Sequence record: PZ247578.1
DNA length: 37,944 nucleotides
Direction: 5' to 3' (one strand)
Source of the DNA: a phage
This document shows, in pieces, positions 1 through 37,944 of the stretch; within the stretch, counting starts at the first letter, position 1; every line of letters starts with the position of its first letter. The position numbers and the translations under genes are program-made. The notes beneath the pieces are model-generated. The model ran no database searches and was not told where the DNA came from. It saw only the letters and a list, made by a program, of their open reading frames with translations.

Positions 1-70
1 ACCTACAGTCCTACAACCTACAGTCCTACAACCTACAGTCCTACAACCTACAGTCCTACAACCTACAGTC
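1..70. repeat. Left terminal tandem array of a 15-bp unit (ACCTACAGTCCTACA), about 4.7 copies; probable part of the direct terminal repeat
   Basis: Perfect 15-bp periodicity read directly; the same unit recurs at the right end (37824..37944). Confidence 0.8.
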
Positions 71-224
71 ACAACCATAAGACACTCACATCCTACAGTC
101 ATAGACCTACAGTTAATAGACACAAGGCTATAGACTTAAGGTCTAAGACATGTTAGTCAAAGACTATATCCTCTTACACCATGGGGCCGACGATAGCTTA
201 ATCAATATTATTTAAGATTATCTA

Positions 225-253
225 TTGACTACAGGTCCAGACTATGGCTTAAT
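225..253 (+). promoter_or_regulatory. Candidate host sigma70 early promoter (TTGACT, 17-nt spacer, TG-n-CTTAAT)
   Basis: -35 TTGACT at 225..230 and an extended -10-like hexamer at 248..253; sits where T7 has the A1-A3 early promoters. The -10 is weak. Confidence 0.35.
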
Positions 254-365
254 AGCTTCCGTCAACACGACACGGCAACAACCGGATAGTGAAGACGCCG
301 GGTCATCCCGGTTAAGTAGACAGCCTGATAAGTCATACGAACAACAGGCAGATGACAGAAAGTAG

Positions 366-400
366 TTGACAAGATGTACCGACTTAAAGTAGTATGTACC
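366..400 (+). promoter_or_regulatory. Candidate host sigma70 early promoter resembling T7 A2/A3 (TTGACA ... TAGTAT GTACCACAT)
   Basis: TTGACA at 366..371, TAGTAT at 390..395 (18-nt spacer), followed by GTACCACAT as I recall downstream of the T7 A3 -10. Confidence 0.5.
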
Positions 401-510
401 ACATCAACACGAAACAACGGTGACGACCAACACTGAAATGGTCTACCTGAAGTCCTCTGACTGAAGGGAATGCTCTTTAACAATCTGGATAAACTCTTAA
501 TGTGCGCCGA

Positions 511-586
511 CAGTGATTAACTACAGGGTCTTTGAGTCTACATCTGAGGGCCCTGACTGATAGTCACTAACAACTGAGAGGATATA
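511..586 (+). repeat. Copy 1 of an approx. 75-bp duplicated leader element ending in the Shine-Dalgarno of the Ocr-like gene; candidate RNase III processing site or early regulatory leader
   Basis: Near-identical to 1331..1402 (a few mismatches); contains the self-complementary core AGGGCCCT. Confidence 0.6.
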
Positions 587-589
587 ACT

Positions 590-1087
590 ATGGAACGTAA
601 CGCTAACGCATACTATGAGCTGCTGGCTGCAACCGTTGAGGCATTTATCGAGCGTATTCAGTACGACCACCTGACTCAAGATGATGACTACAGCGATGCG
701 CTGCATGAGGTCGTAGACGGTCAGGTCCCGCACTATTACCACGAGATTTTTACGGTGATGGCTGCTGATGGTATAGACAACGAGTTCGAAGACTCTGGGA
801 TGATACCTGAAACCAAGGACGTAACGCGTATCCTACAAGCTCGCATCTATGAGGCGCTGTATAACGATGTGTCTAATAGCTTGGATGTAGTCTGGTTTGA
901 GGATGAAGAGGCAGACGAAGAGGATGAATATTGGGTAGTTGACGCTAAAACAGGCGCAATAATTGTGCAAGCTGTAGCTCTTGAGGTCGCTACTGCATGT
1001 GCCAAGGTTAACTATGCGGCAGGTCGCCACCTGAAGGTGGAAGACATCAATGATAACGTAGTGTTCGACCCTGCGGCTGAGGACTGA
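590..1087 (+). CDS. Ocr-like DNA-mimic anti-restriction protein (gp0.3 homolog) with a C-terminal extension of about 50 aa
   Basis: The stretch [45 protein letters not shown] matches recalled T7 Ocr ([45 protein letters not shown]); acidic [10 protein letters not shown] tract; SD GAGAGGA; 165 aa versus 117 aa in T7. Confidence 0.8.
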
Positions 1088-1092
1088 GAGCG

Positions 1093-1269
1093 ATGATAAC
1101 CTACGGTTTATGCCAGCACCACGTCACCATCGCCCGACTTATGGTCAAGACCGGGCAATTAAACCACGAGGAGTCTATGCGTCTCTTGAAAGTGGTCTAC
1201 AGGAGACGCAAGCGCATACACGACAGCTTACACTCTGAGGATAACCAACAATGTACAGATAACTTATAG
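1093..1269 (+). CDS. Small hypothetical early protein (58 aa), gene 0.4-position ORF
   Basis: ATG directly after the Ocr stop with a weak SD; below the ORF-track length cutoff, translated by hand. Confidence 0.3.
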   Translation: MITYGLCQHHVTIARLMVKTGQLNHEESMRLLKVVYRRRKRIHDSLHSEDNQQCTDNL

Positions 1270-1330
1270 CAGTGAACAGGCATTCTACGATGGGTGCTAC
1301 GAGCTGATGAAGCGCGATACTTGCTAGCGA

Positions 1331-1402
1331 TAGTGATTAACTACAGGGTCTTTGAGTCTACATCTGAAGGCCCTGACTGATAGTCACTAACAACTGAGAG
1401 GA
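1331..1402 (+). repeat. Copy 2 of the approx. 75-bp duplicated leader element, directly upstream of ORF 1408..1635
   Basis: Near-identical to 511..586, including the SD. Confidence 0.6.
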
Positions 1403-1407
1403 CAGAT

Positions 1408-1635
1408 ATGAACACAATCACTGGTGCCATAACCAAAGGTTTTCGAGCAATTTTCGGTGAAACGCAAGAAGTATGCACCAATCATAAATTCGTACTTTCT
1501 TGCGTAGTAGGGGACGAGTTTGACGGATTCGATAAACTGGTGGTTTGCGACCATTGTGGACAAGAGGCTATCCAACGCTCAAACGGTAAATTTGAATTAA
1601 TAGACGATAGCCTTACAGAAGGAGACGGCGAGTAA
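1408..1635 (+). CDS. Hypothetical early protein (75 aa), Cys-rich with a possible zinc-ribbon arrangement (C..C ... CDHC)
   Basis: SD GAGAGGA; preceded by the duplicated leader; four Cys positioned like a small Zn-binding module. Confidence 0.6.
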   Translation: MNTITGAITKGFRAIFGETQEVCTNHKFVLSCVVGDEFDGFDKLVVCDHCGQEAIQRSNGKFELIDDSLTEGDGE

Positions 1636-1667
1636 CCTAGATAAACAGGAGAGAACCAAATCGTAGC

Positions 1668-1695
1668 TTGACCATAACGCTGACAGGTGGATACT
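1668..1695 (+). promoter_or_regulatory. Candidate host sigma70 promoter (TTGACC, 16-nt spacer, GATACT)
   Basis: The -10 hexamer GATACT is the one I recall for T7 A1; spacing 16 nt. Confidence 0.4.
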
Positions 1696-1705
1696 GAGTG
1701 ATAGA

Positions 1706-1736
1706 CGAGAGGTCATCGACTGATAGGTGGCCTCAA
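1706..1736 (+). ncRNA. RNase III-like hairpin (GAGGUCA ... UGGCCUC), R0.5-like position
   Basis: 7-bp stem with one G-U pair and a 13-nt loop; same AGGTCA...GGCC(T) motif as the hairpins at 5483, 12305 and 34590. Confidence 0.4.
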
Positions 1737-1767
1737 AGATTACCACTTACATTAATAGGAGTTAACT

Positions 1768-1857
1768 ATGAATATCGGTTACTGGGTGTGCTTATCTCCG
1801 GTCATCTTTCTGATAGGGTATGGGATATACGACTGTATTAAACGGAAATCACTATGA
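1768..1857 (+). CDS. Small hydrophobic early peptide (29 aa, MNIGYWVCLSPVIFLIGYGIYDCIKRKSL)
   Basis: SD TAGGAG; one predicted transmembrane-like segment; stop overlaps the next start (ATGA). Confidence 0.4.
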   Translation: MNIGYWVCLSPVIFLIGYGIYDCIKRKSL

Positions 1858-2051
1858 GTCTTGCACTATTGATAGCCATAGGCTATGGACTTATCGCCTA
1901 CGTGCTGGTGAGAGACATCAACAAGGCACGTAAAGTCTATAAATTCAACTATGTACGTCTGGGCCGCTGGACTGTACGTCAACCTAACGGACGATTCATG
2001 CGCAACTTAGCGAACGTCTGGGATATAGCAACTCTTGGGAGCAAACTGTAA
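1854..2051 (+). CDS. Hypothetical early protein (65 aa) with an N-terminal hydrophobic helix
   Basis: Translationally coupled to the ORFs on either side. Confidence 0.55.
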   Translation: MSLALLIAIGYGLIAYVLVRDINKARKVYKFNYVRLGRWTVRQPNGRFMRNLANVWDIATLGSKL

Positions 2052-2377
2052 TGAACAAGTCATACGGGATTAATCTGGTACACTCTATGGACGCAGACAT
2101 GCAAATGTTAAGCCTACTGGCTACCGGGTATCGTCACGGAACGTCAAGTCACACCGCACGTCAACAGCAGGAGCGGGACCGTGTACTACAGGCGCGACTC
2201 CGGGCAGAGGGCCATATATACGAACTGATGAGTCTGGCGTTTGGTGGACGACCGCTCACTGACGATGGTAAACTTTTAGTCTCAGGCTGGAAGGCGATAG
2301 ACCAACGGTCAGCCATCAAGCACACGACTCACGGTGACTTCAGTCATCTTCACGCTAACCCACTGATATGCAAGTAA
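2051..2377 (+). CDS. Hypothetical early protein (108 aa)
   Basis: ORF with SD GGGAG, coupled to the upstream ORF (TAATG); occupies the T7 0.6/0.7 region but is far too short to be the 0.7 kinase. Confidence 0.55.
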   Translation: MNKSYGINLVHSMDADMQMLSLLATGYRHGTSSHTARQQQERDRVLQARLRAEGHIYELMSLAFGGRPLTDDGKLLVSGWKAIDQRSAIKHTTHGDFSHLHANPLICK

Positions 2378-2382
2378 TTATG

Positions 2383-2406
2383 ACTTAACTATCACTATAG
2401 GACTCA
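2383..2406 (+). promoter_or_regulatory. Phage RNAP promoter-like sequence (TTAACTATCACTATAGGACTC) upstream of the RNA polymerase gene
   Basis: Matches the core repeated 11 times in the window; followed by an R1-like leader (GACTCAAGGTC, then two copies of TAAGTGAAAGAC). Confidence 0.6.
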
Positions 2407-2474
2407 AGGTCTAAGACTCCAAGTGAAAGACCAAAGAGACTTTAAGTGAAAGACTAATAACAAGGACTTTAAGT

Positions 2475-5156
2475 ATGAGCGTCATCTCTATTGACAAACA
2501 CGACTTCTCTGATGTGTCGAACGCCATTGAGCCGTTTAACCTGCTGGCTGACCACTACGGGCAAGACCTTGCAGTCAAACAGCTTCAGCTTGAGCATGAG
2601 GCATATACAGAAGGCGAGCGACGTTTCATCAAGAACCTTGAGCGCCAGACTGAGCGCGGGGAACTGGCAGACAATCAGGTCGCCAAGCCTTTGATGCAGA
2701 CTCTGGTCCCTAAGATTGCGCAAGCCGTCAAGGAGTGGCATGAAGGTCCAGACGGGAAACTGTCAACCTCTCGTCCTAGCGTAGCGTTCACCATGTTGAG
2801 CACTGATGAGAAGGCCGTCAAGGACCGCTCTATGCGCATCTCCTGTGAGTCCGCTGCGGTTATCATACTGAAGGTCATACTCTCAAAGCTGGTAAAGCCT
2901 GAAGGGATACCGATTACACCGATGGCCTCCGCGATAGGTCGCACACTTGAGGACGAAATCCGCTTCGGTCGCATCCGTGACAAAGAGAAAGAGCACTTCA
3001 AGAAGGCGATAGCTGATAACCTGAATAAGAGGGCCGGGGCGTCATACAAGAAAGCCTACATGCAAGCGGTCGAGGCGTCCATGCTGGAGCAAGGCCAACT
3101 GGAAGATGCGTGGGGGACTTGGAGTCCTACAGAGGCTGTCCACGTTGGCATCAAGATGCTCGAGATTGTCATCCAGTCAACACAACTGGTCGAGCTTAAG
3201 CGGTACGGTGCTGGTAATGCAGCGGCTGACGTAGAGATGGTCCACCTGTCAGACTTCTGGGTCAAGAAGATGGCACAACGAGGATTCAGCCTTGCGGGTA
3301 TCGCTCCAGTCTACCAGCCTTGCGTCGTTCCACCTAAGCCGTGGACTGGTGTCGTAGGTGGTGGGTACTGGGCCAAAGGTCGCAGACCGTTACCATTGAT
3401 TCGCTTAGGGTCTAAGTCTGCGGTAGCACGTTATGAAGACGTATACATGCCTGAAGTCTATGACGCTGTGAATATCATCCAGAATACACCTTGGAAAGTG
3501 AACAAGAAGGTATTGGACGTGGTGAACACGGTCGAGAAGCTGAACAACACGCCTATTGAGGACATCCCTCAGATGGAACCGCTGAAGCCTGAGGACTATG
3601 CTGGTGAAACCGAGGAGGAACTAAAGGCATGGAAGAAGGCTGCTGCTGGTATCTATCGCCGCGAGAAGGCCAGACAGTCACGCAGATTATCACTGAGCTT
3701 TATCGTTAACCAAGCAAACAAGTTCTCTCAGTTCAAGGCCATCTGGTTCCCGTACAACATGGATTGGCGAGGTCGTGTCTACGCTGTCCCGATGTTCAAC
3801 CCTCAGGGTAACGACATGCAGAAGGGGCTCCTGACTCTGGCAGTCGGAAAGCCTATTGGTGCTGACGGTTTCAAATGGCTGAAGGTCCACGGTGCAAACT
3901 GTGCGGGTGTCGATAAAGTCACCTTCGATGAGCGCATCAAGTGGGTGGAAGACAACCACGAAAACATCATGGCTGCTGCTAAGGCACCGATGGATAGTAT
4001 TGAGTGGTGGGGCAAGTTAGACTCTCCGTTCTGCTTCCTAGCTTTCTGCTTCGAGTATGCTGGCGTAATGCACCACGGCTTGTCTTACTCCTGCTCGCTG
4101 CCGATAGCGTTCGATGGGTCCTGCTCTGGGATTCAGCACTTCAGCGCTATGCTTCGCGACCACATCGGTGGACATGCAGTAAACCTGACGCCATCCGGTA
4201 AGGTCCAAGACATCTACCGCATCGTGTCTGACCGCATTGAGGAGGAGCTTAAAGTCCTACTGGTTAACGGTACGGACAACGAGATGGTAACTCACGAGGA
4301 CAAGAAAACTGGTGAGATTACCGAGCGTCTCAAGCTGGGGACACGAGAGCTTGCCCGTCAGTGGCTGACCTACGGTATGTCACGAAAGGTCACTAAGCGT
4401 TCGGTCATGACTCTGGCCTACGGGTCGAAAGAGTACGGCTTCGCAGACCAAGTTTACGAGGACATCGTGATGCCAGCGATTGACTCAGGGTCTGGCGCTA
4501 TGTTCACTGAACCAAGCCAAGCGTCTCGCTTCATGGCAAAGATGATTTGGGAAGCTGTGAGTGTGACAGTAGTTGCTGCGGTTGACGCGATGAAGTGGCT
4601 TCAAGGTGCTGCCAAGCTGCTGGCTGCTGAGGTGAAGGACAAGAAGACTGGAGAAATCCTGAAGCCTTGCCTTCCGGTACACTGGGTCACACCTGATGGG
4701 TTCCCGGTCTGGCAGGAGTACCGCAAGAAGGATACTACTCGTCTGAACCTGATGTTCTTAGGGTCATTCAATCTTCAGCCTACCGTCAACAAAGGTACGA
4801 AGAAAGAGCTGGACAAGCACAAGCAGGAGTCAGGCATTAGCCCGAACTTCGTCCACTCACAAGATGGTAGCCACCTCCGCAAGACTGTAGTCCACACTCA
4901 CCGAAAGTATGGCGTGATGTCATTCGCAGTGATTCACGATAGCTTCGGGACCATCCCGGCTGACGCTGAGTATCTGTTCCGTGGCGTCCGTGAGACGATG
5001 GTAGAGACTTACCGCGATAACGATGTGCTGCTTGACTTCTACGAGCAGTTCGAATACCAGCTTCACGAGAGTCAGCGCGACAAGTTGCCTGAGCTTCCGA
5101 AGAAAGGTAAACTGAATATCGAGGACATCTTGTCTTCAGACTTTGCATTCGCTTAA
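2475..5156 (+). CDS. Single-subunit DNA-directed RNA polymerase (T7 gp1 homolog), 893 aa
   Basis: Catalytic motifs DGSCSGIQHFSAM and HDSFGT; length and position as in T7; ends in FAFA like T7 RNAP. Confidence 0.97.
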   Translation: MSVISIDKHDFSDVSNAIEPFNLLADHYGQDLAVKQLQLEHEAYTEGERRFIKNLERQTERGELADNQVAKPLMQTLVPKIAQAVKEWHEGPDGKLSTSRPSVAFTMLSTDEKAVKDRSMRISCESAAVIILKVILSKLVKPEGIPITPMASAIGRTLEDEIRFGRIRDKEKEHFKKAIADNLNKRAGASYKKAYMQAVEASMLEQGQLEDAWGTWSPTEAVHVGIKMLEIVIQSTQLVELKRYGAGNAAADVEMVHLSDFWVKKMAQRGFSLAGIAPVYQPCVVPPKPWTGVVGGGYWAKGRRPLPLIRLGSKSAVARYEDVYMPEVYDAVNIIQNTPWKVNKKVLDVVNTVEKLNNTPIEDIPQMEPLKPEDYAGETEEELKAWKKAAAGIYRREKARQSRRLSLSFIVNQANKFSQFKAIWFPYNMDWRGRVYAVPMFNPQGNDMQKGLLTLAVGKPIGADGFKWLKVHGANCAGVDKVTFDERIKWVEDNHENIMAAAKAPMDSIEWWGKLDSPFCFLAFCFEYAGVMHHGLSYSCSLPIAFDGSCSGIQHFSAMLRDHIGGHAVNLTPSGKVQDIYRIVSDRIEEELKVLLVNGTDNEMVTHEDKKTGEITERLKLGTRELARQWLTYGMSRKVTKRSVMTLAYGSKEYGFADQVYEDIVMPAIDSGSGAMFTEPSQASRFMAKMIWEAVSVTVVAAVDAMKWLQGAAKLLAAEVKDKKTGEILKPCLPVHWVTPDGFPVWQEYRKKDTTRLNLMFLGSFNLQPTVNKGTKKELDKHKQESGISPNFVHSQDGSHLRKTVVHTHRKYGVMSFAVIHDSFGTIPADAEYLFRGVRETMVETYRDNDVLLDFYEQFEYQLHESQRDKLPELPKKGKLNIEDILSSDFAFA

Positions 5157-5170
5157 CAGGAGAGAGAGTT

Positions 5171-5386
5171 ATGAAATTTGCACACAAGCAGACTGGCGTT
5201 AAGGGCGGGACTCAAATCGTGACCGTAACAGAACACAACGGCAAGGGTCTGGTGAAGACCACGGTCATTCCTACCGAAATGTCAAAGCAGCTTAACGTCC
5301 CATTCAAGACCCTCGTCTATCTTGTGGAATCTAGCCACGAGAAATACCTGAAAGACGCAGTGTCCAAGCTGGAGCATACCAAATGA
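5171..5386 (+). CDS. Hypothetical protein (71 aa) between the RNAP gene and the phi1.1-like promoter; no T7 counterpart at this position
   Basis: Strong SD ACAGGAGAGAG; basic and Lys-rich. Confidence 0.6.
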   Translation: MKFAHKQTGVKGGTQIVTVTEHNGKGLVKTTVIPTEMSKQLNVPFKTLVYLVESSHEKYLKDAVSKLEHTK

Positions 5387-5460
5387 CAGACCTACAGTTA
5401 CTGGCCCTGTGGCTGGGAGCACTCGCAGTATTCACTTTAATCCAACGCAGAAGAGGTTAA
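5383..5460 (+). CDS. Small hydrophobic peptide (25 aa, MTDLQLLALWLGALAVFTLIQRRRG)
   Basis: ATG overlaps the upstream stop (AAATGA); single transmembrane-like helix with a basic C-terminus; hand-translated. Confidence 0.3.
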   Translation: MTDLQLLALWLGALAVFTLIQRRRG

Positions 5461-5463
5461 CCC

Positions 5464-5486
5464 TAAACTATCACTATAGGATTAGA
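5464..5486 (+). promoter_or_regulatory. Phage RNAP promoter (TAAACTATCACTATAGGATTAG), phi1.1-like
   Basis: Consensus core; immediately followed by an RNase III-like hairpin. Confidence 0.8.
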
Positions 5487-5530
5487 CTCAAGGTCATGAC
5501 TCAAAGTCGTGGCCTTCATGATTAACCCTA
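5483..5530 (+). ncRNA. RNase III-like processing hairpin (R1.1 position)
   Basis: AGACTCAAGGTCATG...GTGGCCTTCATGATTAAC; same family as 12305 and 34590. Confidence 0.55.
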
Positions 5531-5554
5531 ACTCATTCAATCAGGAGCTACACC

Positions 5555-5734
5555 ATGTATCAGAACACTATCAACTTCGAGCGAATCCGTGAACGTCAGC
5601 AGACTGAAGATTATATTCCGAAGGGACGCAAGCTGAACAAGACCAAGCGTGGTGGAGGTGTCAAGGGTGCTTTCCGTAACGCTGAAGGCAAAGACTCTAT
5701 GGTCAACCAAGAGAAATACTTCGTAGGAGCATAA
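5555..5734 (+). CDS. gp1.1-like small basic protein (59 aa)
   Basis: KGRKLNKTKR matches my recollection of T7 gp1.1; SD CAGGAG; below the ORF-track cutoff, hand-translated. Confidence 0.6.
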   Translation: MYQNTINFERIRERQQTEDYIPKGRKLNKTKRGGGVKGAFRNAEGKDSMVNQEKYFVGA

Positions 5735-5737
5735 GTC

Positions 5738-5998
5738 ATGAACCATTACGAGCTTAAAGATTTCGCAAAGAGTCTTGGACTTGTGGTTGAGCACGACTGG
5801 TATGAGGACCTCCAGCGTAGACTTAAGGTAGAGCGAGTGTCCTTCAGGACAGACTACAGGTACTCACCAAAGAACGGCTACGAGAGAGGGGACCTGATAG
5901 CGAGACTTGAGTTTAATGACTCAATGGGTCCAACAGAATACGCCGATGCCATCGGTCCGGCTTACAACGCACTTAAACAATTTGAACTGTGGAGATAA
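5738..5998 (+). CDS. gp1.2-like protein (possible dGTPase inhibitor homolog), 86 aa
   Basis: Position and size match T7 gp1.2 (85 aa); a shared HDWYED / DDWYD-like motif; weak similarity only. Confidence 0.5.
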   Translation: MNHYELKDFAKSLGLVVEHDWYEDLQRRLKVERVSFRTDYRYSPKNGYERGDLIARLEFNDSMGPTEYADAIGPAYNALKQFELWR

Positions 5999-6002
5999 CA
6001 CA

Positions 6003-7110: not shown

Positions 7111-7148
7111 TGTGCTAGCAAGCTATCGTCTGGGACACCAGCTAGACC

Positions 7149-7172
7149 CTAAGCTATCACTATAGGACAACC
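7149..7172 (+). promoter_or_regulatory. Phage RNAP promoter variant (AAGCTATCACTATAGGACAACC)
   Basis: Core ATCACTATAGG with a -12 variant. Confidence 0.7.
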
Positions 7173-7996: not shown

Positions 7997-8078
7997 GTGG
8001 TGCGAGCGTAAATTTGAGGAGACAGGTAACGTCGATTACCTTCAGCTCTACAACTTATGGAAGGAGCGTGGTCTATGA
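7983..8078 (+). CDS. Small hypothetical ORF (31 aa), gene 1.8 position
   Basis: Overlaps the gp1.7 stop and the gp2 start; hand-translated. Confidence 0.3.
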
Positions 8079-8233
8079 CTGACGTAGAGAAGAAATACAT
8101 CGTTGAGCTTGAGGGGCGCGTTCAGTCCTTCGAGGTTCCGGTGTACGCAAAGTCTCTTGAAGAGGCTACACTGAAGTCCCAAGAGTATGAGGACGCTGGG
8201 TTTGTGGTCGGACGGATTCGTCCTGAGGCCTAA
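8075..8233 (+). CDS. gp2-like inhibitor of host RNA polymerase (52 aa)
   Basis: [14 protein letters not shown]...[10 protein letters not shown] matches recalled T7 Gp2 (SFEVPIYAETLDEA...AGFEVTRVRP); SD AAGGAG; hand-translated. Confidence 0.8.
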
Positions 8234-8253
8234 ACTATCACTGTAGGACAGAC
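8231..8253 (+). promoter_or_regulatory. Phage RNAP promoter variant (TAAACTATCACTGTAGGACAGA)
   Basis: Core with A-to-G change at -4 (CTGTAGG). Confidence 0.6.
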
Positions 8254-9440: not shown

Positions 9441-9910
9441 TGACTCAGAAATATAGACTTAATGTTAGTGACTACGGGTGGCCTAAGGGTACTATCGTTA
9501 CGAAATGTGCGGAAGACCCCTCACCCATCCCCGGAATTACTCTGGTAGAATCCTCAGAGCGTGGCAAATTCAAGCACGGAGCAGCAGGTTTTGACACTCA
9601 GCCTGACGGTATGTGGGGGGCGTGGGTTTCAAATGAAGATCTTGAGGAAATCTTAGAGGATAAACCGCAAGTCCTGCCAGCCTCAAGTGTCCCTCCTGTC
9701 ACCGTTAAACGTGAAGTCCTGACCATCAACAAGATTGGTGTAGGTCAGACGTTCATCGTCCACGGTAAGCCTGACGAAGTGTACGTGAAGATTAGTAACT
9801 CTCACGTCTTCAACCATAAGTTGCTCCAGATGCACACGACTGACGCACATCGCTTCCAGTCACATCTGAATCTAGTGGTCGTAGAATTGGTGGTGTACAA
9901 TGGTAAGTAA
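9440..9910 (+). CDS. Hypothetical protein (about 156 aa) inserted between endonuclease I and lysozyme; no T7 counterpart
   Basis: SD AGAAAGGAG; start overlaps the gp3 stop (TGATG); 3' end overlaps the lysozyme start by 11 nt; no motif I recognise. Confidence 0.65.
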   Translation: MTQKYRLNVSDYGWPKGTIVTKCAEDPSPIPGITLVESSERGKFKHGAAGFDTQPDGMWGAWVSNEDLEEILEDKPQVLPASSVPPVTVKREVLTINKIGVGQTFIVHGKPDEVYVKISNSHVFNHKLLQMHTTDAHRFQSHLNLVVVELVVYNGK

Positions 9911-10358
9911 GGTACAGTTCAACCCACGGTCCAGGACTGACGCTATCTTCGTTCACTGTTCGGCTACCAAGCCAGATATGGACATCGGGGTAGAGACCAT
10001 CCGTATGTGGCACAAGCAGCAAGGCTGGCTGGACGTAGGCTACCACTTTATCATCAAACGTGATGGAACTGTGGAAGAGGGTCGCCCGGTCAATGTCGTA
10101 GGGTCGCACGTTAAGGACTGGAACTCACGGTCTGTAGGCGTCTGCCTTGTAGGTGGAATTGACGCTAAGGGCAAGTTTGAAGCTAACTTCACTCAGTCCC
10201 AGATGAACTCACTGCGCAACAAGCTGGCTGACCTGAAGGCCCTGTATCCTCAGGCAGAAATAAAAGCACACCATGATGTAGCACCTAAGGCGTGTCCAAG
10301 TTTCGACTTGCAGCGCTGGCTATCTACCAATGAACTGGTAACTTCCGACCGAGGCTAA
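9900..10358 (+). CDS. N-acetylmuramoyl-L-alanine amidase / T7-type lysozyme (gp3.5 homolog), 152 aa
   Basis: DAIFVHCSATKP, WLDVGYHFIIKRDGTVEEGR, APKACPSFDL, C-terminal NELVTSDRG: near-collinear with T7 lysozyme. Confidence 0.95.
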   Translation: MVSKVQFNPRSRTDAIFVHCSATKPDMDIGVETIRMWHKQQGWLDVGYHFIIKRDGTVEEGRPVNVVGSHVKDWNSRSVGVCLVGGIDAKGKFEANFTQSQMNSLRNKLADLKALYPQAEIKAHHDVAPKACPSFDLQRWLSTNELVTSDRG

Positions 10359-10377
10359 ACTATCACCTTAGGGATGG
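10355..10377 (+). promoter_or_regulatory. Divergent phage promoter-like sequence (CTAAACTATCACCTTAGGGATG) followed by a short hairpin
   Basis: Core altered to CACCTTAGGG; GGGACA-N8-TGTCCC stem and TTTGTT at 10376..10401. Confidence 0.4.
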
Positions 10378-15965: not shown

Positions 15966-16019
15966 GTCTAACCGATAGTCATATCCTATTAATCCAACAG
16001 TAATCCATAGGTGAAACAC

Positions 16020-16042
16020 TAAACTATCACTATAGGGACTTT
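16020..16042 (+). promoter_or_regulatory. Phage RNAP promoter (TAAACTATCACTATAGGGACTT), phi6.5-like
   Basis: Full consensus core. Confidence 0.85.
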
Positions 16043-16101
16043 AGGACCTAAGATATGACTATAAGATAGACTTTAGTCTTAACTTAAAGAGGAGATTCAA
16101 G

Positions 16102-17274: not shown

Positions 17275-18843
17275 ATGGCTGAACGTGAAGGGTTCGCTGC
17301 TGAAGGAGCCAAAGCGGTCTATGACCGACTGAAGAACGGTAGACAGCCATATGAGACACGCGCTCAGAACTGTGCTGCTGTCACTATCCCGTCACTGTTT
17401 CCTAAGGAGTCCGACAACTCGTCTACTGAGTACACAACTCCGTGGCAAGCTGTAGGTGCTCGCTGCTTGAACAACTTAGCTGCAAAGCTGATGTTGGCAT
17501 TATTCCCTCAGTCACCGTGGATGCGACTGACAGTCTCCGAATATGAGGCCAAGACCTTGAGTCAGGACTCAGAGGCAGCTGCTCGTGTTGACGAAGGGCT
17601 GGCTATGGTCGAGCGTGTGTTGATGGCCTACATGGAGACCAACAGTTTCCGTGTACCATTGTTCGAAGCTCTGAAGCAGCTTATCGTCTCCGGTAACTGT
17701 CTGCTATACATTCCAGAGCCTGAACAGGGTACTTACAGTCCTATGCGAATGTACCGCTTAGTGTCCTACGTTGTTCAACGTGATGCTTTCGGTAATATCT
17801 TGCAGATTGTGACTCTCGACAAGGTAGCGTTTAGTGCTCTACCGGAAGACGTTAAGTCACAACTCAACGCAGACGACTATGAGCCTGACACAGAGCTGGA
17901 AGTATATACGCACATCTACCGTCAAGACGACGAGTATCTACGTTATGAGGAAGTGGAAGGCATTGAGGTAGCAGGGACCGATGGTTCCTACCCACTGACT
18001 GCATGTCCATACATCCCGGTACGAATGGTTCGACTGGATGGTGAAGACTATGGTCGTTCTTACTGCGAGGAGTATCTGGGTGACCTGAACTCGCTGGAGA
18101 CGATTACAGAAGCTATCACCAAAATGGCTAAGGTAGCCTCCAAGGTGGTTGGCCTCGTTAACCCGAACGGTATCACGCAACCTCGTCGTCTGAACAAGGC
18201 GGCTACAGGTGAGTTCGTTGCCGGTCGCGTTGAGGACATCAACTTCCTGCAACTGACTAAGGGTCAGGACTTTACGATTGCCAAGTCGGTGGCTGATGCT
18301 ATCGAGCAACGTTTAGGCTGGGCCTTCCTTCTTAATAGTGCTGTTCAGCGTAATGCCGAGCGAGTCACTGCTGAAGAGATTCGTTATGTTGCTGGCGAAC
18401 TGGAGGCGACCTTAGGTGGCGTGTACTCAGTACAATCCCAAGAGCTTCAGTTACCTATCGTCCGTGTGCTGATGAACCAACTTCAGTCTGCTGGCATGAT
18501 TCCTGACCTTCCGAAAGAAGCGGTAGAGCCTACTGTCTCCACTGGTCTGGAAGCGTTAGGTCGTGGTCAGGACTTGGAGAAGCTAACTCAGGCGGTTAAC
18601 ATGATGACTGGTCTTCAGCCGCTATCTCAGGACCCGGACATCAACTTGCCGACCCTTAAGCTACGACTCCTGAACGCTCTGGGTATCGACACCGCTGGCC
18701 TTCTGCTGACTCAGGACGAGAAGATGCAACGTATTGCTGAACAATCAGCTCAAGGAGCTGTGGTCAACGGTGCGTCTGCTGCTGGTGCTAACATGGGTGC
18801 TGCTGTAGGTCAGGGAGCTGGTGAGGACATGGCTCAAGCCTAA
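17275..18843 (+). CDS. Portal (head-to-tail connector) protein, gp8 homolog, 522 aa
   Basis: Extensive collinear similarity to recalled T7 gp8 (YETRAQNCA, PWQAVGAR, YRLVSYVVQRDAFGN, RVTAEEIRYVA). Confidence 0.95.
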   Translation: MAEREGFAAEGAKAVYDRLKNGRQPYETRAQNCAAVTIPSLFPKESDNSSTEYTTPWQAVGARCLNNLAAKLMLALFPQSPWMRLTVSEYEAKTLSQDSEAAARVDEGLAMVERVLMAYMETNSFRVPLFEALKQLIVSGNCLLYIPEPEQGTYSPMRMYRLVSYVVQRDAFGNILQIVTLDKVAFSALPEDVKSQLNADDYEPDTELEVYTHIYRQDDEYLRYEEVEGIEVAGTDGSYPLTACPYIPVRMVRLDGEDYGRSYCEEYLGDLNSLETITEAITKMAKVASKVVGLVNPNGITQPRRLNKAATGEFVAGRVEDINFLQLTKGQDFTIAKSVADAIEQRLGWAFLLNSAVQRNAERVTAEEIRYVAGELEATLGGVYSVQSQELQLPIVRVLMNQLQSAGMIPDLPKEAVEPTVSTGLEALGRGQDLEKLTQAVNMMTGLQPLSQDPDINLPTLKLRLLNALGIDTAGLLLTQDEKMQRIAEQSAQGAVVNGASAAGANMGAAVGQGAGEDMAQA

Positions 18844-18862
18844 ACTATCACTATAGGAACTT
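18841..18862 (+). promoter_or_regulatory. Phage RNAP promoter (TAAACTATCACTATAGGAACTT), phi9-like
   Basis: Consensus core. Confidence 0.85.
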
Positions 18863-19824: not shown

Positions 19825-19826
19825 GA

Positions 19827-19849
19827 CTAAACTATCACTATAGGGAGAC
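19827..19849 (+). promoter_or_regulatory. Strong phage RNAP promoter (CTAAACTATCACTATAGGGAGACC), phi10-like
   Basis: Best match to the full consensus including GGGAGA; upstream of the capsid gene. Confidence 0.9.
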
Positions 19850-19950: not shown

Positions 19951-21000
19951 ATGGCAAACGTTCCGGGTCAGAAAGTAGGTACAGACCAAGGCAAAGGCAA
20001 ATCTGGTTCCGACGCTCTGGCGTTGTTCCTGAAGGTATTTGCTGGTGAAGTCCTGACCGCATTCACTCGCCGCTCTGTAACTGCTGACAAGCATATTGTC
20101 CGTACAATTCAGAACGGTAAGTCTGCTCAGTTCCCGGTCATGGGTCGCACCTCTGGTGTGTATCTGGCTCCGGGTGAGCGACTGTCCGATAAGCGTAAAG
20201 GTATCAAACATACCGAGAAAGTGATTACCATTGATGGTCTGCTGACTGCCGATGTGATGATTTTCGACATTGAAGACGCGATGAACCACTATGACGTGGC
20301 TGGCGAGTACTCCAACCAGTTGGGCGAAGCTCTGGCTATCGCTGCCGATGGTGCGGTACTGGCTGAGATGGCTATTCTGTGTAACCTACCGGCTGCATCT
20401 GATGAAAACATCGCTGGTCTTGGCAAAGCGTCTGTGCTGGAAGTTGGTACTAAAGCAGACCTGAACACTCCGGCTAAGCTGGGTGAAGCAATCATCGGTC
20501 AACTGACCATTGCTCGTGCGAAGCTGACATCCAACTACGTTCCTGCTGGCGACCGTTACTTCTACACCACGCCGGACAACTACTCTGCAATCCTCGCGGC
20601 TCTGATGCCGAACGCTGCTAACTATGCTGCGCTGATTGACCCAGAGACTGGTAACATCCGTAACGTAATGGGCTTCGTGGTTGTTGAAGTTCCACACTTG
20701 ACTCAGGGTGGTGCTGGGGAAACTCGTGGTGCCGATGGTATCACTATTGCGACTGGTCAGAAGCACGCCTTCCCAGCTACTGCTACTGGTGATGTTAAAG
20801 TTGCTCTGGACAACGTTGTGGGCCTGTTCTCTCACCGTTCTGCTGTAGGTACTGTTAAGCTGCGTGACTTGGCGCTGGAACGTGACCGTGACGTCGATGC
20901 TCAGGGCGACCTGATTGTTGGTAAGTACGCTATGGGTCACGGTGGTCTGCGTCCAGAAGCAGCAGGCGCACTGGTTTTCACAGCGGCGTCAGCGGGTTAA
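19951..21000 (+). CDS. Major capsid protein 10A, 349 aa
   Basis: DALALFLKVFAGEVLTAF, KHTEKVITIDGLLTADV, LMPNAANYAALIDPE, KYAMGHGGLRPEAAG closely match recalled T7 gp10A. Confidence 0.97.
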   Translation: MANVPGQKVGTDQGKGKSGSDALALFLKVFAGEVLTAFTRRSVTADKHIVRTIQNGKSAQFPVMGRTSGVYLAPGERLSDKRKGIKHTEKVITIDGLLTADVMIFDIEDAMNHYDVAGEYSNQLGEALAIAADGAVLAEMAILCNLPAASDENIAGLGKASVLEVGTKADLNTPAKLGEAIIGQLTIARAKLTSNYVPAGDRYFYTTPDNYSAILAALMPNAANYAALIDPETGNIRNVMGFVVVEVPHLTQGGAGETRGADGITIATGQKHAFPATATGDVKVALDNVVGLFSHRSAVGTVKLRDLALERDRDVDAQGDLIVGKYAMGHGGLRPEAAGALVFTAASAG

Positions 21001-24484: not shown

Positions 24485-24510
24485 CTTATTGAAGGGCCTA
24501 TAGATTTACC

Positions 24511-24533
24511 TTAACTATCACTATAGGGACTAT
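24511..24533 (+). promoter_or_regulatory. Phage RNAP promoter (TTAACTATCACTATAGGGACTA), phi13-like, flanked by a perfect 12-bp inverted repeat
   Basis: Consensus core; flanking arms AAGGGCCTATAG (24492..24503) and CTATAGGCCCTT (24530..24541). Confidence 0.85.
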
Positions 24534-30900: not shown

Positions 30901-31789
30901 TGACCGCTGGCTGAAGACCGCTGGTATCTCTGACGAGCAGTGGAAGGGCATTAAGTCCCTAATCCGTGAGTCAGTGACTCGTGGTCCAGACGGGAAGTAC
31001 ACCATCAAGGATAAGAAGGCGTTCAGTCAGGACCCAAGGGCTATGGACCTATGGCGTATGGGTGACACCATCGCTGACGAGACGTTACTCCGGCCTCATA
31101 AGCTGTCAAACATGGACTCCAAGGCTTATGGTCCTCTCGCTAAGACTGTCCTTCAGTTTAAGAACTTCGTCATCAAGTCAATCAATGGTCGAACCATGCG
31201 AACATTCTATAACGCCACGAAGAACAACCGAGCGATGGACGCTGCACTGTCTACTGTGATGTCTATGGGTCTGGCTGGTATCTACTACATGGCTCAGGCG
31301 CACGTCAAGGCTTACGCTATGCAGGACGGTCGAGACCGAGATTATCTCAAGCAAGCTCTGGACCCAACGATGATTGGCTATGCGGCCCTGTCCCGTAGTT
31401 CACATCTTGGTGGACCCCTTGGGGTAGCTAACATTCTAGGTGGCATCGCTGGGTATGAGGACACTAAGATGCTCCGTTCGTCTATCCTCCCGCGTTCACC
31501 TACAGAGAAACCCGAACGTGCCATCTCATATGGTGCGGCTACAAGTGACCCTGTGATGAATGTCGTTGGTAACTTCTTGGAGCAGGTCCCGGCTTTCGGC
31601 TATATTGCTAACGTTGGCGCTTCGGCATACAACTTGGCTGGCTACCTCAAGGCTGATACTCGTGTCAACGAGCGTGACTACATGACCGGGATGTATAATA
31701 CGTTCCGTGAACTTGTACCGAATGACCCGATTACCCAGAAGTTGCTGCTTGGAACGTTTGAGGAGCAGGGCATCCACATCAAGGACTAA
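27902..31789 (+). CDS. Internal virion protein D (gp16 homolog), about 1295 aa; the N-terminal roughly 130 aa differ from the T7 transglycosylase domain
   Basis: From about residue 200 onward collinear with recalled T7 gp16 (STWFGF, PTRWN..WT.EELD.IR, VVTGGSP, RLEARETARN, RSPTGMQSGASGK, ENNSFLE.RNLFDSD); N-terminus begins MATRGIRNNNPGNIR. Confidence 0.9.
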   Translation: MATRGIRNNNPGNIRVGKDQWEGMTGDDGAFVTFDSPESGVRALGKNLLSYGRQGYDSIEKIINRWAPPNENDTKAYIDSVVAATGIPATQSLDLSDPDTLSSLAQAISFHETGSRYDPEVYQKGVARALNGISPKTPPVSANVFDALTEGLKAKPKVALGENLPTAAGLNIEGQAPEAPNESFGEMFYKATGETMRELEDRSTWFGFGAATEAEVKNSMVGVAIRAGKTEDSLDVIGDVFNPTRWNNHKWTREELDQIRNAGVLPQYYGVITGGSPQNLTELINLALENQKLDQEKAKAGTGAQLAAGVIGAGVDPLTYVPIAGQVGKGAKLVNKMFTVSAQSGALAGVSEMARTSVAGGDAHVAEAILGGALFGGGMTAIADGLGRALGRNTNEFAGPATRLEARETARNVDGQDLSRLPIQEGEPTFSHQGVKFADVPNEPGSVRLEDGSILIGENPLNPKTRQVFDEVIEPERAAAGVNLGGLTEIGLKLLRSENPEIRGVAADLVRSPTGMQSGASGKIGTTASDVFERLRAVDHRFYNDIDDAVTEALKDPYFQTAFWRDSGAFRQDIYQRVSMAIEDGSGNLKAELTPGELKVYDLLKNQFDAKREMMENPAMFGRPDAQSIFPGSRFNGTYVPHVYSKQMKELYIKELGSPEALQEAIKKSWLTSYASRPEVKKRVDEALLEADPTLTPEGLAAAVDKYANDKAYGISHTEQFERSSVMEENINGLVGLENNSFLESRNLFDSDMSIVLPNGQTFSVNNLREWDMDKIVPAYNRRVNGDIAIMAGTGKTTKEMKDLVETMMNKAGDDGKLKGEVSTLRDTLKILTGRARRDGADDAAFATVMRTMTDLSFFAKSAYMGVQNLTEIGGMLARGNVRAMLHGVPMFRDLAFRNKKVGASEIKDLHNVLFGKELDDSIRPSKQDVIDRLRSYSDLGRGTATALGTAKYYTGELAVRSPFTKVLNGTTNYLLDAGRQGFLSDIVEHSLTGSKRKFDDRWLKTAGISDEQWKGIKSLIRESVTRGPDGKYTIKDKKAFSQDPRAMDLWRMGDTIADETLLRPHKLSNMDSKAYGPLAKTVLQFKNFVIKSINGRTMRTFYNATKNNRAMDAALSTVMSMGLAGIYYMAQAHVKAYAMQDGRDRDYLKQALDPTMIGYAALSRSSHLGGPLGVANILGGIAGYEDTKMLRSSILPRSPTEKPERAISYGAATSDPVMNVVGNFLEQVPAFGYIANVGASAYNLAGYLKADTRVNERDYMTGMYNTFRELVPNDPITQKLLLGTFEEQGIHIKD

Positions 31790-31808
31790 ACTATCACTAT
31801 AGGAAACT
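31786..31808 (+). promoter_or_regulatory. Phage RNAP promoter (CTAAACTATCACTATAGGAAACT), phi17-like
   Basis: Consensus core. Confidence 0.85.
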
Positions 31809-36957: not shown

Positions 36958-36994
36958 CTACCAGTCTAACCTACTGTTTTACAAGGAGTTTGGA

Positions 36995-37017
36995 CTTAAC
37001 TATCACTATAGGGAAGA
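36995..37017 (+). promoter_or_regulatory. Phage RNAP promoter (CTTAACTATCACTATAGGGAAGA), phiOR-like
   Basis: Consensus core near the right end. Confidence 0.85.
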
Positions 37018-37355: not shown

Positions 37356-37699
37356 CGCAATCATGGTAACGATTCATGAGCGGAAGACCTAAGGTCAGTA
37401 CGTGGATAAAGACTCACTCTACTGACCTTAGCTACTGTAGTCAAGGACTTTAGGTAACACCTTAATAGAAGCTCACCTAGGGTCATCCTACTTATTGGTC
37501 TATCCTAGTGTCGCCTGACCTACGGTCCTTGACCTACAGTAGCTGCCACCTACGGTCACTCGATGAGTTTTGGACCAAAAGTTTGAGACCACATCTCACA
37601 GTTCAAGAACCTCAAGTCTCCCCATAGGCCCTCTTTCAGTCCAGACCAAAGGCCCTACCCGTGCCAGTCTATCATAAGGTTAGACAGATGGTCAAGACG

Positions 37700-37788
37700 T
37701 TAGGTCAACGATAGGTTGGGACTATGGGTTAGGTCAACGATAGGTTTGGACTATGGGTTAGGGAAGGACGATAGGTTGGGACTATGGG
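37700..37788. repeat. Three tandem 29-31-bp repeats (TTAGGTCAACGATAGGTTGGGACTATGGG) just inside the right terminal array
   Basis: Read directly; T7-like genomes carry short repeat series next to the terminal repeats. Confidence 0.75.
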
Positions 37789-37823
37789 TCTGTCTCTGAG
37801 TCTCTATCTGTATAACCATAGGT

Positions 37824-37944
37824 CCTACAACCTACAGTCCTACAACCTACAGTCCTACAACCTACAGTCCTACAACCTACAGTCCTACAACCTACAGTCC
37901 TACAACCTACAGTCCTACAACCTACAGTCCTACAACCTACAGTC
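37824..37944. repeat. Right terminal tandem array of the same 15-bp unit (about 8 copies); probable part of the direct terminal repeat
   Basis: Same unit and phase as 1..70; the window ends inside the array. Confidence 0.8.

Follow-up and report, generated by a model that had tools for sequence, protein, structure and literature searches.

A cognate phage promoter ahead of the RNA polymerase gene of a Kayfunavirus: gene 1 as a probable natural autogene

In the textbook scheme of T7 transcription, the gene of the phage RNA polymerase (RNAP) is an early gene that depends on the host enzyme for its expression. The locus described here, where a copy of the phage promoter lies directly upstream of the polymerase gene (gene 1), raises the question of whether a phage of the same group may also transcribe this gene with the very polymerase that it encodes. 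The DNA analysed, a stretch of 37,944 nt called the window below, comes from a T7-group phage of the genus Kayfunavirus (K1F-like); the 1.4 kb around the gene 1 promoter are 96.9% identical to Kayfunavirus LI10P1 and match 223 phage records. Both ends of the assembly fall within one 15-nt tandem array, ACCTACAGTCCTACA (positions 1-113 and 37822-37944), and the assembly thus represents a circularly opened genome. Another tandem array, with a 29-nt unit (3.1 copies, 37699-37789), lies just upstream of the right-hand 15-nt array. Our reading of the locus is that gene 1 is probably a natural "autogene", i.e., that a genuine promoter of the polymerase's own specificity is located 75 nt upstream of the gene. 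The features of the early region and the two downstream genes that matter for the argument are the following.

366..395, + strand: sigma-70-like early promoter, TTGACA-18-TAGTAT (sequence scan)
590-1087: Ocr homologue, upstream of gene 1
1668..1695, + strand: second sigma-70-like promoter, TTGACC-16-GATACT (sequence scan)
2051..2377, + strand: last early ORF, 108 aa, phrog_7066 (function unknown)
2383..2405, + strand: phage-RNAP promoter of gene 1, -17 to +6, with the core TTAACTATCACTATAGG at 2385-2401; a homologous site is annotated in CR44b and CR8
2475..5156, + strand: gene 1, single-subunit T7-type RNA polymerase, 893 aa (phrog_414, 1060 bits)
8057..8233, + strand: gp2-like inhibitor of host RNA polymerase (phrog_1307, E 2.4e-24)
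9900..10358, + strand: gp3.5-like amidase/lysozyme (phrog_822, E 4e-80)

Four small early ORFs are also found upstream of gene 1, and the stop codon of the ORF at 2051..2377 is only 6 nt ahead of the -17 position of the promoter. There is no gp0.7 kinase among the early ORFs, and the part of the early region that was examined shows neither an integrase nor a MarR context. The search for terminator-like sites on the + strand of positions 1-6000 returned none, so the path from the early promoters to gene 1 is clear and the host polymerase would supply the first gene 1 mRNA; the sigma-70-like promoter at 366..395 would be the source of these first, host-made transcripts. The early region also contains a duplicated 75-nt element (508-582 and 1328-1402, 97% identity), with one copy immediately ahead of the Ocr gene (590) and one ahead of the ORF at 1408. 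Both copies have RNase III-type hairpins (z -2.0 and -3.1) and are likely processing sites equivalent to R0.3 and R0.5 of T7.

An earlier inspection of this DNA, the sequence-only reading, had proposed a near-consensus phage promoter 75 nt ahead of the RNAP start, and this proposal was confirmed. The 17-mer TTAACTATCACTATAGG is present at 2385-2401 of the + strand with no mismatches and has the same letters as the copies at 24511 and 36996; compared with the majority form (TAAAC...), the gene 1 promoter is different at -14 alone. The core CACTATA (-7 to -1) and the G residues at +1 and +2 are in place (ATCACTATA followed by GGACTC, 2391-2405). With T7 as a model, G2400 is the predicted +1, which leaves 75 nt to the ATG at 2475 of the 893-aa RNAP ORF, and the predicted initial transcript, GGACUC, is class II-like. 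A matrix made from the other ten promoter copies of the window scores the gene 1 promoter at 31.6 bits, as compared with 27.0-39.3 bits for those ten and 18 bits for the best non-site in the window. A sigma-70 promoter overlapping the gene 1 promoter was looked for, and none was found.

The motif was matched 12 times in the whole window when up to three mismatches were allowed, versus 0.05 matches expected from shuffles. Eleven of these matches are true promoter copies, every one on the + strand, and six of the eleven, the gene 1 promoter included, have the GGACUC start. The twelfth match (1762, three mismatches) was discarded as a chance one; it shares bases with the start codon of a small ORF, and its score is under 12 bits, the listing threshold of the matrix scan of the window. 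The ten copies from which the matrix was made, each located by motif search and matrix, are as follows.

5462..5484, + strand: phage promoter just 3' of gene 1, with an RNase III-type hairpin (5479-5545) next to it
7148..7170, + strand: phage promoter copy
8229..8251, + strand: phage promoter copy, TGTAGG variant
10354..10376, + strand: phage promoter copy, the weakest (27 bits)
16018..16040, + strand: phage promoter copy
18839..18861, + strand: phage promoter copy
19826..19848, + strand: phage promoter copy with a GGGAGA start (class III-like), ahead of ORF 19951-21000
24509..24531, + strand: phage promoter copy, 17-mer the same as at the gene 1 site
31785..31807, + strand: phage promoter copy
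36994..37016, + strand: right-end phage promoter, phiOR-like, 17-mer the same as at the gene 1 site

The hairpin at 5479-5545 (AAGGUCAUGACUC...GUCGUGGCCUU, z -2.7) directly follows the promoter located after gene 1 and may be compared with T3, in which phi1.1 is followed by R1.1. Elsewhere, a weak promoter-like match, CCTAAGATATGACTATAAGATAGAC, scoring 18 bits, lies within 16041-16071; its putative +1 at 16064 follows that of the promoter at 16018-16040 by 29 nt.

A promoter that is used should follow its polymerase when the specificity of the latter changes, and the comparison of relatives bears directly on this point. For this comparison, 80 viral loci encoding relatives of the polymerase were fetched and T7-type promoter cores were located in each of them. 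The promoter is present at -75, -76 or -81 from the ATG in all 18 IMG/VR loci for which upstream sequence is available and which encode an RNAP 93-99% identical to that of the window. A promoter ahead of gene 1 is also present in K1F and CR44b, and the 111-nt stretch comprising the promoter and the leader has 219 matching records in the phage collection. Altogether, a cognate promoter is found 75-102 nt upstream of the polymerase gene in every K1F-like relative examined and in CR8.

The specificity loop of the window's RNAP is RLNLMFLGSFNLQPT, with N748, N756 and Q758 (T7 numbering). The RNAPs of two loci (L016 and L042) and of Shigella phage SFP21B are about 88% identical to it, and their loops are T3-like, carrying N748D and N756R where the window has two asparagines. 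Every promoter of these three is TTAAACCCTCACTATAGG, the copy at -75/-76 included, and the end of the ORF and the leader that flank the SFP21B-type -75/-76 copy are nearly identical to those of the window. The RNAP of Citrobacter phage CR8 (L014) is 79% identical to the window's, and its promoters, one of which is at -102, are of the AAGGAAGGTACACTATAGG form. The promoter bases from -12 to -8 go together with the loop, being ACTAT with N748/N756, ACCCT with D748/R756 and AGGTA with the loop of CR8, and in each of these three specificities the copy upstream of gene 1 follows the cognate version. In an experiment of Temme et al. (PMC3458549), T7 RNAP that had received a K1F-type specificity loop was active on a promoter with the K1F-subfamily bases at -12 to -7, orthogonally to the T7 and T3 promoters.

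The rewriting of the site ahead of gene 1 to the cognate sequence in lineages with changed specificity is a strong argument for its function, and we regard the comparative evidence that this promoter copy is used as good. The earlier claim that the polymerase gene is preceded by a promoter of its own polymerase is thereby strengthened: the promoter very probably works, as its position is kept in relatives and its sequence changes with the specificity loop. As far as sequence comparison goes, conservation and covariation prove selection of the site as a promoter and not which of its downstream consequences is selected; the selected effect would be a greater supply of polymerase. In the Kayfunavirus literature we found no start-site mapping or in vitro transcription of the gene 1 promoter, and phage K1B4, considered as a source of a Kayfunavirus transcriptome, was set aside as an unrelated phage.

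There is also variation among close relatives. In five of the loci (L010, L011, L012, L018 and L019) the site is at -81 and the leader is longer by 6 nt, and this L010-type subgroup has TAAAGG (i.e., -2A) at the gene 1 promoter alone, with TATAGG, TGTAGG or TTTAGG at its other promoters. The -2A variant and the longer leader may represent a lineage-specific tuning of promoter strength.

The transcript that would start at G2400 begins with a leader whose parts are listed here.

2400..2474, + strand: 5' leader of the RNAP mRNA, 75 nt, A-rich (A 32, G 16, T 15, C 12)
2414..2434, + strand: leader repeat copy 1, AGACTCCAAGTGAAAGACCAA, with the exact 11-mer AAGTGAAAGAC at 2421-2431
2437..2457, + strand: leader repeat copy 2, AGACTTTAAGTGAAAGACTAA, with the exact 11-mer AAGTGAAAGAC at 2444-2454
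2462..2466, + strand: Shine-Dalgarno-like AAGGA, 8 nt before the ATG (sequence and alignment)

The leader is 62.7% A+T versus 50.1% for the genome. The direct repeats that had been described in it on first inspection are indeed there as a duplication, and it is their wording that needs correction: the copies read CAAGTGAAAGAC (2420-2431) and TAAGTGAAAGAC (2443-2454) and are exact only as the 11-mer AAGTGAAAGAC, which has no further occurrence in the window. The longer, 21-nt copies are imperfect (86% identity, period 23). An exact repeat of at least 11 nt was obtained in 0.28% of 20,000 dinucleotide shuffles of the leader (P = 0.0028). The pair is not conserved across the genus, as one of its copies is degenerate in leaders of the L010 and L016 types. 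The AAGGACTTTAAGTATG block, which contains the ribosome-binding site, is invariant in Kayfunavirus leaders and differs in CR8.

The order of events that we propose is the following. Host RNA polymerase would start at the left-end sigma-70-type promoters and read through the small early genes into gene 1. The first polymerase molecules would then recognise the site at 2383-2405 and start at G2400, and the resulting mRNA would consist of the unstructured A-rich leader, with AAGGA as its ribosome-binding site, and the complete gene 1. Transcription from G2400 would establish a positive feedback and would, in addition, feed into the downstream 1.x genes. The gp2-like inhibitor, if its role is that of its T7 counterpart, would end the transcription of gene 1 by the host enzyme, so that gene 1 transcripts would come from the phage promoter alone, and the loop would sustain polymerase mRNA after this shut-off. 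Given a promoter that is conserved and covaries with the polymerase, a path with no terminator and a ribosome-binding site in the transcript, positive feedback is a natural consequence.

The loop is probably restrained both by the class II-like start of the promoter (GGA and not GGG) and by the gp3.5 lysozyme homologue. Class II-like promoters of T7 are more sensitive to inhibition by lysozyme, and by analogy with the T7 lysozyme its homologue probably damps the loop. Dubendorff and Studier reportedly found in 1991 that synthetic T7 autogenes are hard to maintain, which suggests that an unrestrained feedback would need a brake. It is also possible that the promoter is weak and the feedback small, since the transcript starts with GGACUC and not GGGAGA and since L010-type phages have the -2A variant at this site. 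Initiation in vivo, the size of the feedback and its brakes are what we infer here.

The alternative that survives best, and which we nevertheless consider unlikely, is that the promoter is real and is kept for a phiOL-like or origin-like job, that is, for the priming or activation of replication, in the manner of the T7 and T3 primary origins, where an AT-rich stretch follows a phage promoter, or for the entry or clearing of the leading part of the genome, with the additional gene 1 mRNA being a by-product. Kayfunaviruses are without phiOL, and the gene 1 promoter is their first phage promoter from the left end. Moreover, a relic is found at the place where T7 and T3 have phiOL.

129..149, + strand: left-end relic CTATAG-ACTTAAGGTCTAAGAC, with a match to the stretch from -5 to +18 at the gene 1 promoter and its leader (2396-2417)

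The relic agrees at 16 of 17 positions over GACTYAAGGTCTAAGAC and is conserved in K1F-type relatives. Upstream of -5 it is not promoter-like, and the matrix scores it below 12 bits. It may be a decayed phiOL, and its sequence match and position suggest kinship between the phiOL-position site and the gene 1 promoter. The high A+T content of the leader and the words CTTTAAG and AAGAC, which it has in common with the annotated primary origin of T3, are further points for an origin-like job. However, the A+T content is well under the 76.6% of the T3 origin and is not the highest among the regions downstream of the window's promoters, and the position of the T7 and T3 primary origin is taken by the promoter at 5462-5484, just after gene 1. 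Unlike phiOL, the gene 1 promoter is located downstream of the early genes and not between the terminal repeat and the host early promoters; host transcription would be past gene 1 before any polymerase protein exists, and the gain for genome entry should therefore be small. The cumulative GC skew, an indicator of low power in these phages, rises monotonically with no turning point near the site. The autogene remains the preferred reading of the locus.

A second alternative concerns the leader and is compatible with a working promoter. The stretch 2400-2474 may be a degenerate or atypical RNase III (R1-like) site or some other post-transcriptional control element, with the 21-nt repeats as its functional core, e.g., as binding sites for a translational regulator. 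We hold this to be quite improbable, in spite of several points that speak for it. In T7 as well as in T3, the host C promoter lies immediately ahead of gene 1, and in T3 it is accompanied by the RNase III site R1. The window's leader opens with GACUCAAGGUC, which is the 5'-arm word of the hairpin at 5479-5545 and of similar T7-group RNase III sites, the 11-nt repeat is improbable by chance, and the leaders of CR8 and gh-1 contain the same family of words, also repeated. On the other side, the 3' arm is missing, and neither 2400-2474 nor 2400-2490 folds better than shuffled sequence (z -0.28 to +0.82), whereas z is -3.9 to -4.4 for the annotated T3 sites R1, R1.1 and R1.3 and -2.0 to -3.1 for the RNase III-type hairpins of the window itself (5479-5545, 508-582 and 1328-1402). 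The predicted folds of three lineage-variant leaders disagree and share no structure, the repeat pair is not conserved, and an Rfam scan of 2250-2650 gave no family, its lone snoRNA match being far under the threshold and due to chance. A stable RNase III hairpin in the leader was therefore dropped: the sequence folds like shuffled sequence and the 5'-arm word is present alone. The repeat is a real local duplication and is most simply seen as part of an unstructured, translation-friendly leader.

More doubtful still is a scenario in which the gene 1 promoter is a transposed or duplicated phiOL, the left-end copy of which became the relic at 129-149, and the 21-nt repeats are operator-like and throttle the autogene. 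As part of this joint and improbable proposal, the repeats would be sites for a phage factor, a host factor or the polymerase itself. If this is true, a single-subunit polymerase would have a dedicated layer of control over its own synthesis that is absent from T7. Finally, it is scarcely credible that the polymerase makes no use of the site and that an inert copy arose here by chance or was left by recombination: about 0.05 chance matches are expected window-wide, the site is kept in every relative examined, and its rewriting to the cognate sequence in two lineages of changed specificity, unexpected for unused sequence, effectively excludes this reading.

The autogene arrangement as such is already known, since it is annotated in CR44b, CR8 and gh-1 and was mapped, together with a feedback model, in LUZ100. 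In addition, the genome paper on Sparklingdew lists the 18-bp repeat where SPD_007 ends, and SPD_008 of this phage is the RNA polymerase gene (PMC13298934). The addition made here is modest and consists of the covariation argument and of the relic at the phiOL position, which shares the initial transcribed sequence of the promoter.

The closest known systems are those of CR44b (NC_023576, 1814-1836) and K1F (NC_007456, about 2476-2498), which have a homologous element with the same 17-mer, a near-identical leader and the same 75 nt and do not differ from the window in anything of substance. CR8 (HG818824) has its own version of the promoter 102 nt upstream of the RNAP gene, and its leader, like the primary origin of T3, shares the CTTTAAG and AAGAC words. 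The site is labelled "predicted promoter" in the CR44b record and "promoter" in that of CR8, and neither record comments on autoregulation.

T7 and T3 resemble the window in having left-end sigma-70 promoters and the order of Ocr or SAM hydrolase, small early genes, gene 1 and then a phage promoter. In both, the sole upstream phage promoter is phiOL (405 in T7; 366-388 in T3), about 2.6-2.8 kb from gene 1, whereas the window has a phage promoter at -75, a leader that lacks a stable hairpin and, where phiOL would be, no more than a relic. The statement of the sequence-only reading that T7 gene 1 is transcribed only by the host RNAP is thus overstated, because phiOL is on the same strand and precedes the entire early region; what distinguishes these phages is the place of the nearest phage promoter and not its presence or absence. 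In the T7-like, Berlin-like, K11-like and other loci whose RNAPs are 58-64% identical to the window's, the 600 nt ahead of gene 1 contain no phage promoter. A scan of SP6 (NC_004831) detected no phage promoter upstream of 3392, i.e., before the RNAP gene, and VP4 has no annotated promoter ahead of its RNAP gene.

Two observations were made on these more distant loci. Most of the K11-like loci (L043-L080) have a K1F-type core (e.g., GATAACTATCACTATAGGTCT) about 57 nt downstream of their own phiOL and about 2,300-2,900 nt upstream of the RNAP gene, and their polymerases use ATTAGGTAGCACTATAGG-type promoters. A T3-like contig (L040) has T3-type promoters 617 and 1569 nt upstream of gene 1 with short repeats of the ACCTAAAG type between them, which points to a T3-like phage whose early region is much reduced.

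In gh-1, the annotated phi1 (NC_004665, 939-961) is a full-consensus cognate promoter located 97 nt upstream of the RNAP gene. There are no early genes before gene 1 of gh-1, and phi1 combines the place of a left-end (phiOL-like) promoter with that of the promoter of gene 1, unlike in the window, where about 2 kb of early genes lie upstream. The leader of gh-1 (L087, 939-1057) contains the direct repeat ATCTTAAAGAC twice, as well as CTCAAAGGTC, and shares this word family with the window's leader (AAGTGAAAGAC twice, and CTCAAGGTC).

In LUZ100, phi1 was mapped directly upstream of the RNAP gene by ONT-cappable-seq, and it was proposed that host read-through primes the polymerase, which then enters a positive feedback loop on its own gene (PMC10134795). 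LUZ100 is a distant and temperate-like phage, and a MarR-like repressor together with a terminator upstream is proposed to gate its loop; the start site of LUZ100 is mapped, whereas that of the window is predicted.

A self-driven polymerase gene thus appears to be a recurring natural design, found in Kayfunaviruses, CR8, gh-1 and LUZ100. The layout bears on the timing of the switch from host to phage transcription and on how a phage copes with the shut-off of the host polymerase. It is also relevant to K1F-type pairs of polymerase and promoter, which already serve as orthogonal expression parts. The synthetic T7 autogene (the term is used in PMC1500874 and PMC6395690) follows the same logic, in that a polymerase gene is placed behind its cognate promoter and a priming polymerase is needed. 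The synthetic autogene is engineered, whereas that of the window would be a natural one, embedded in a lytic programme and primed by host transcription.
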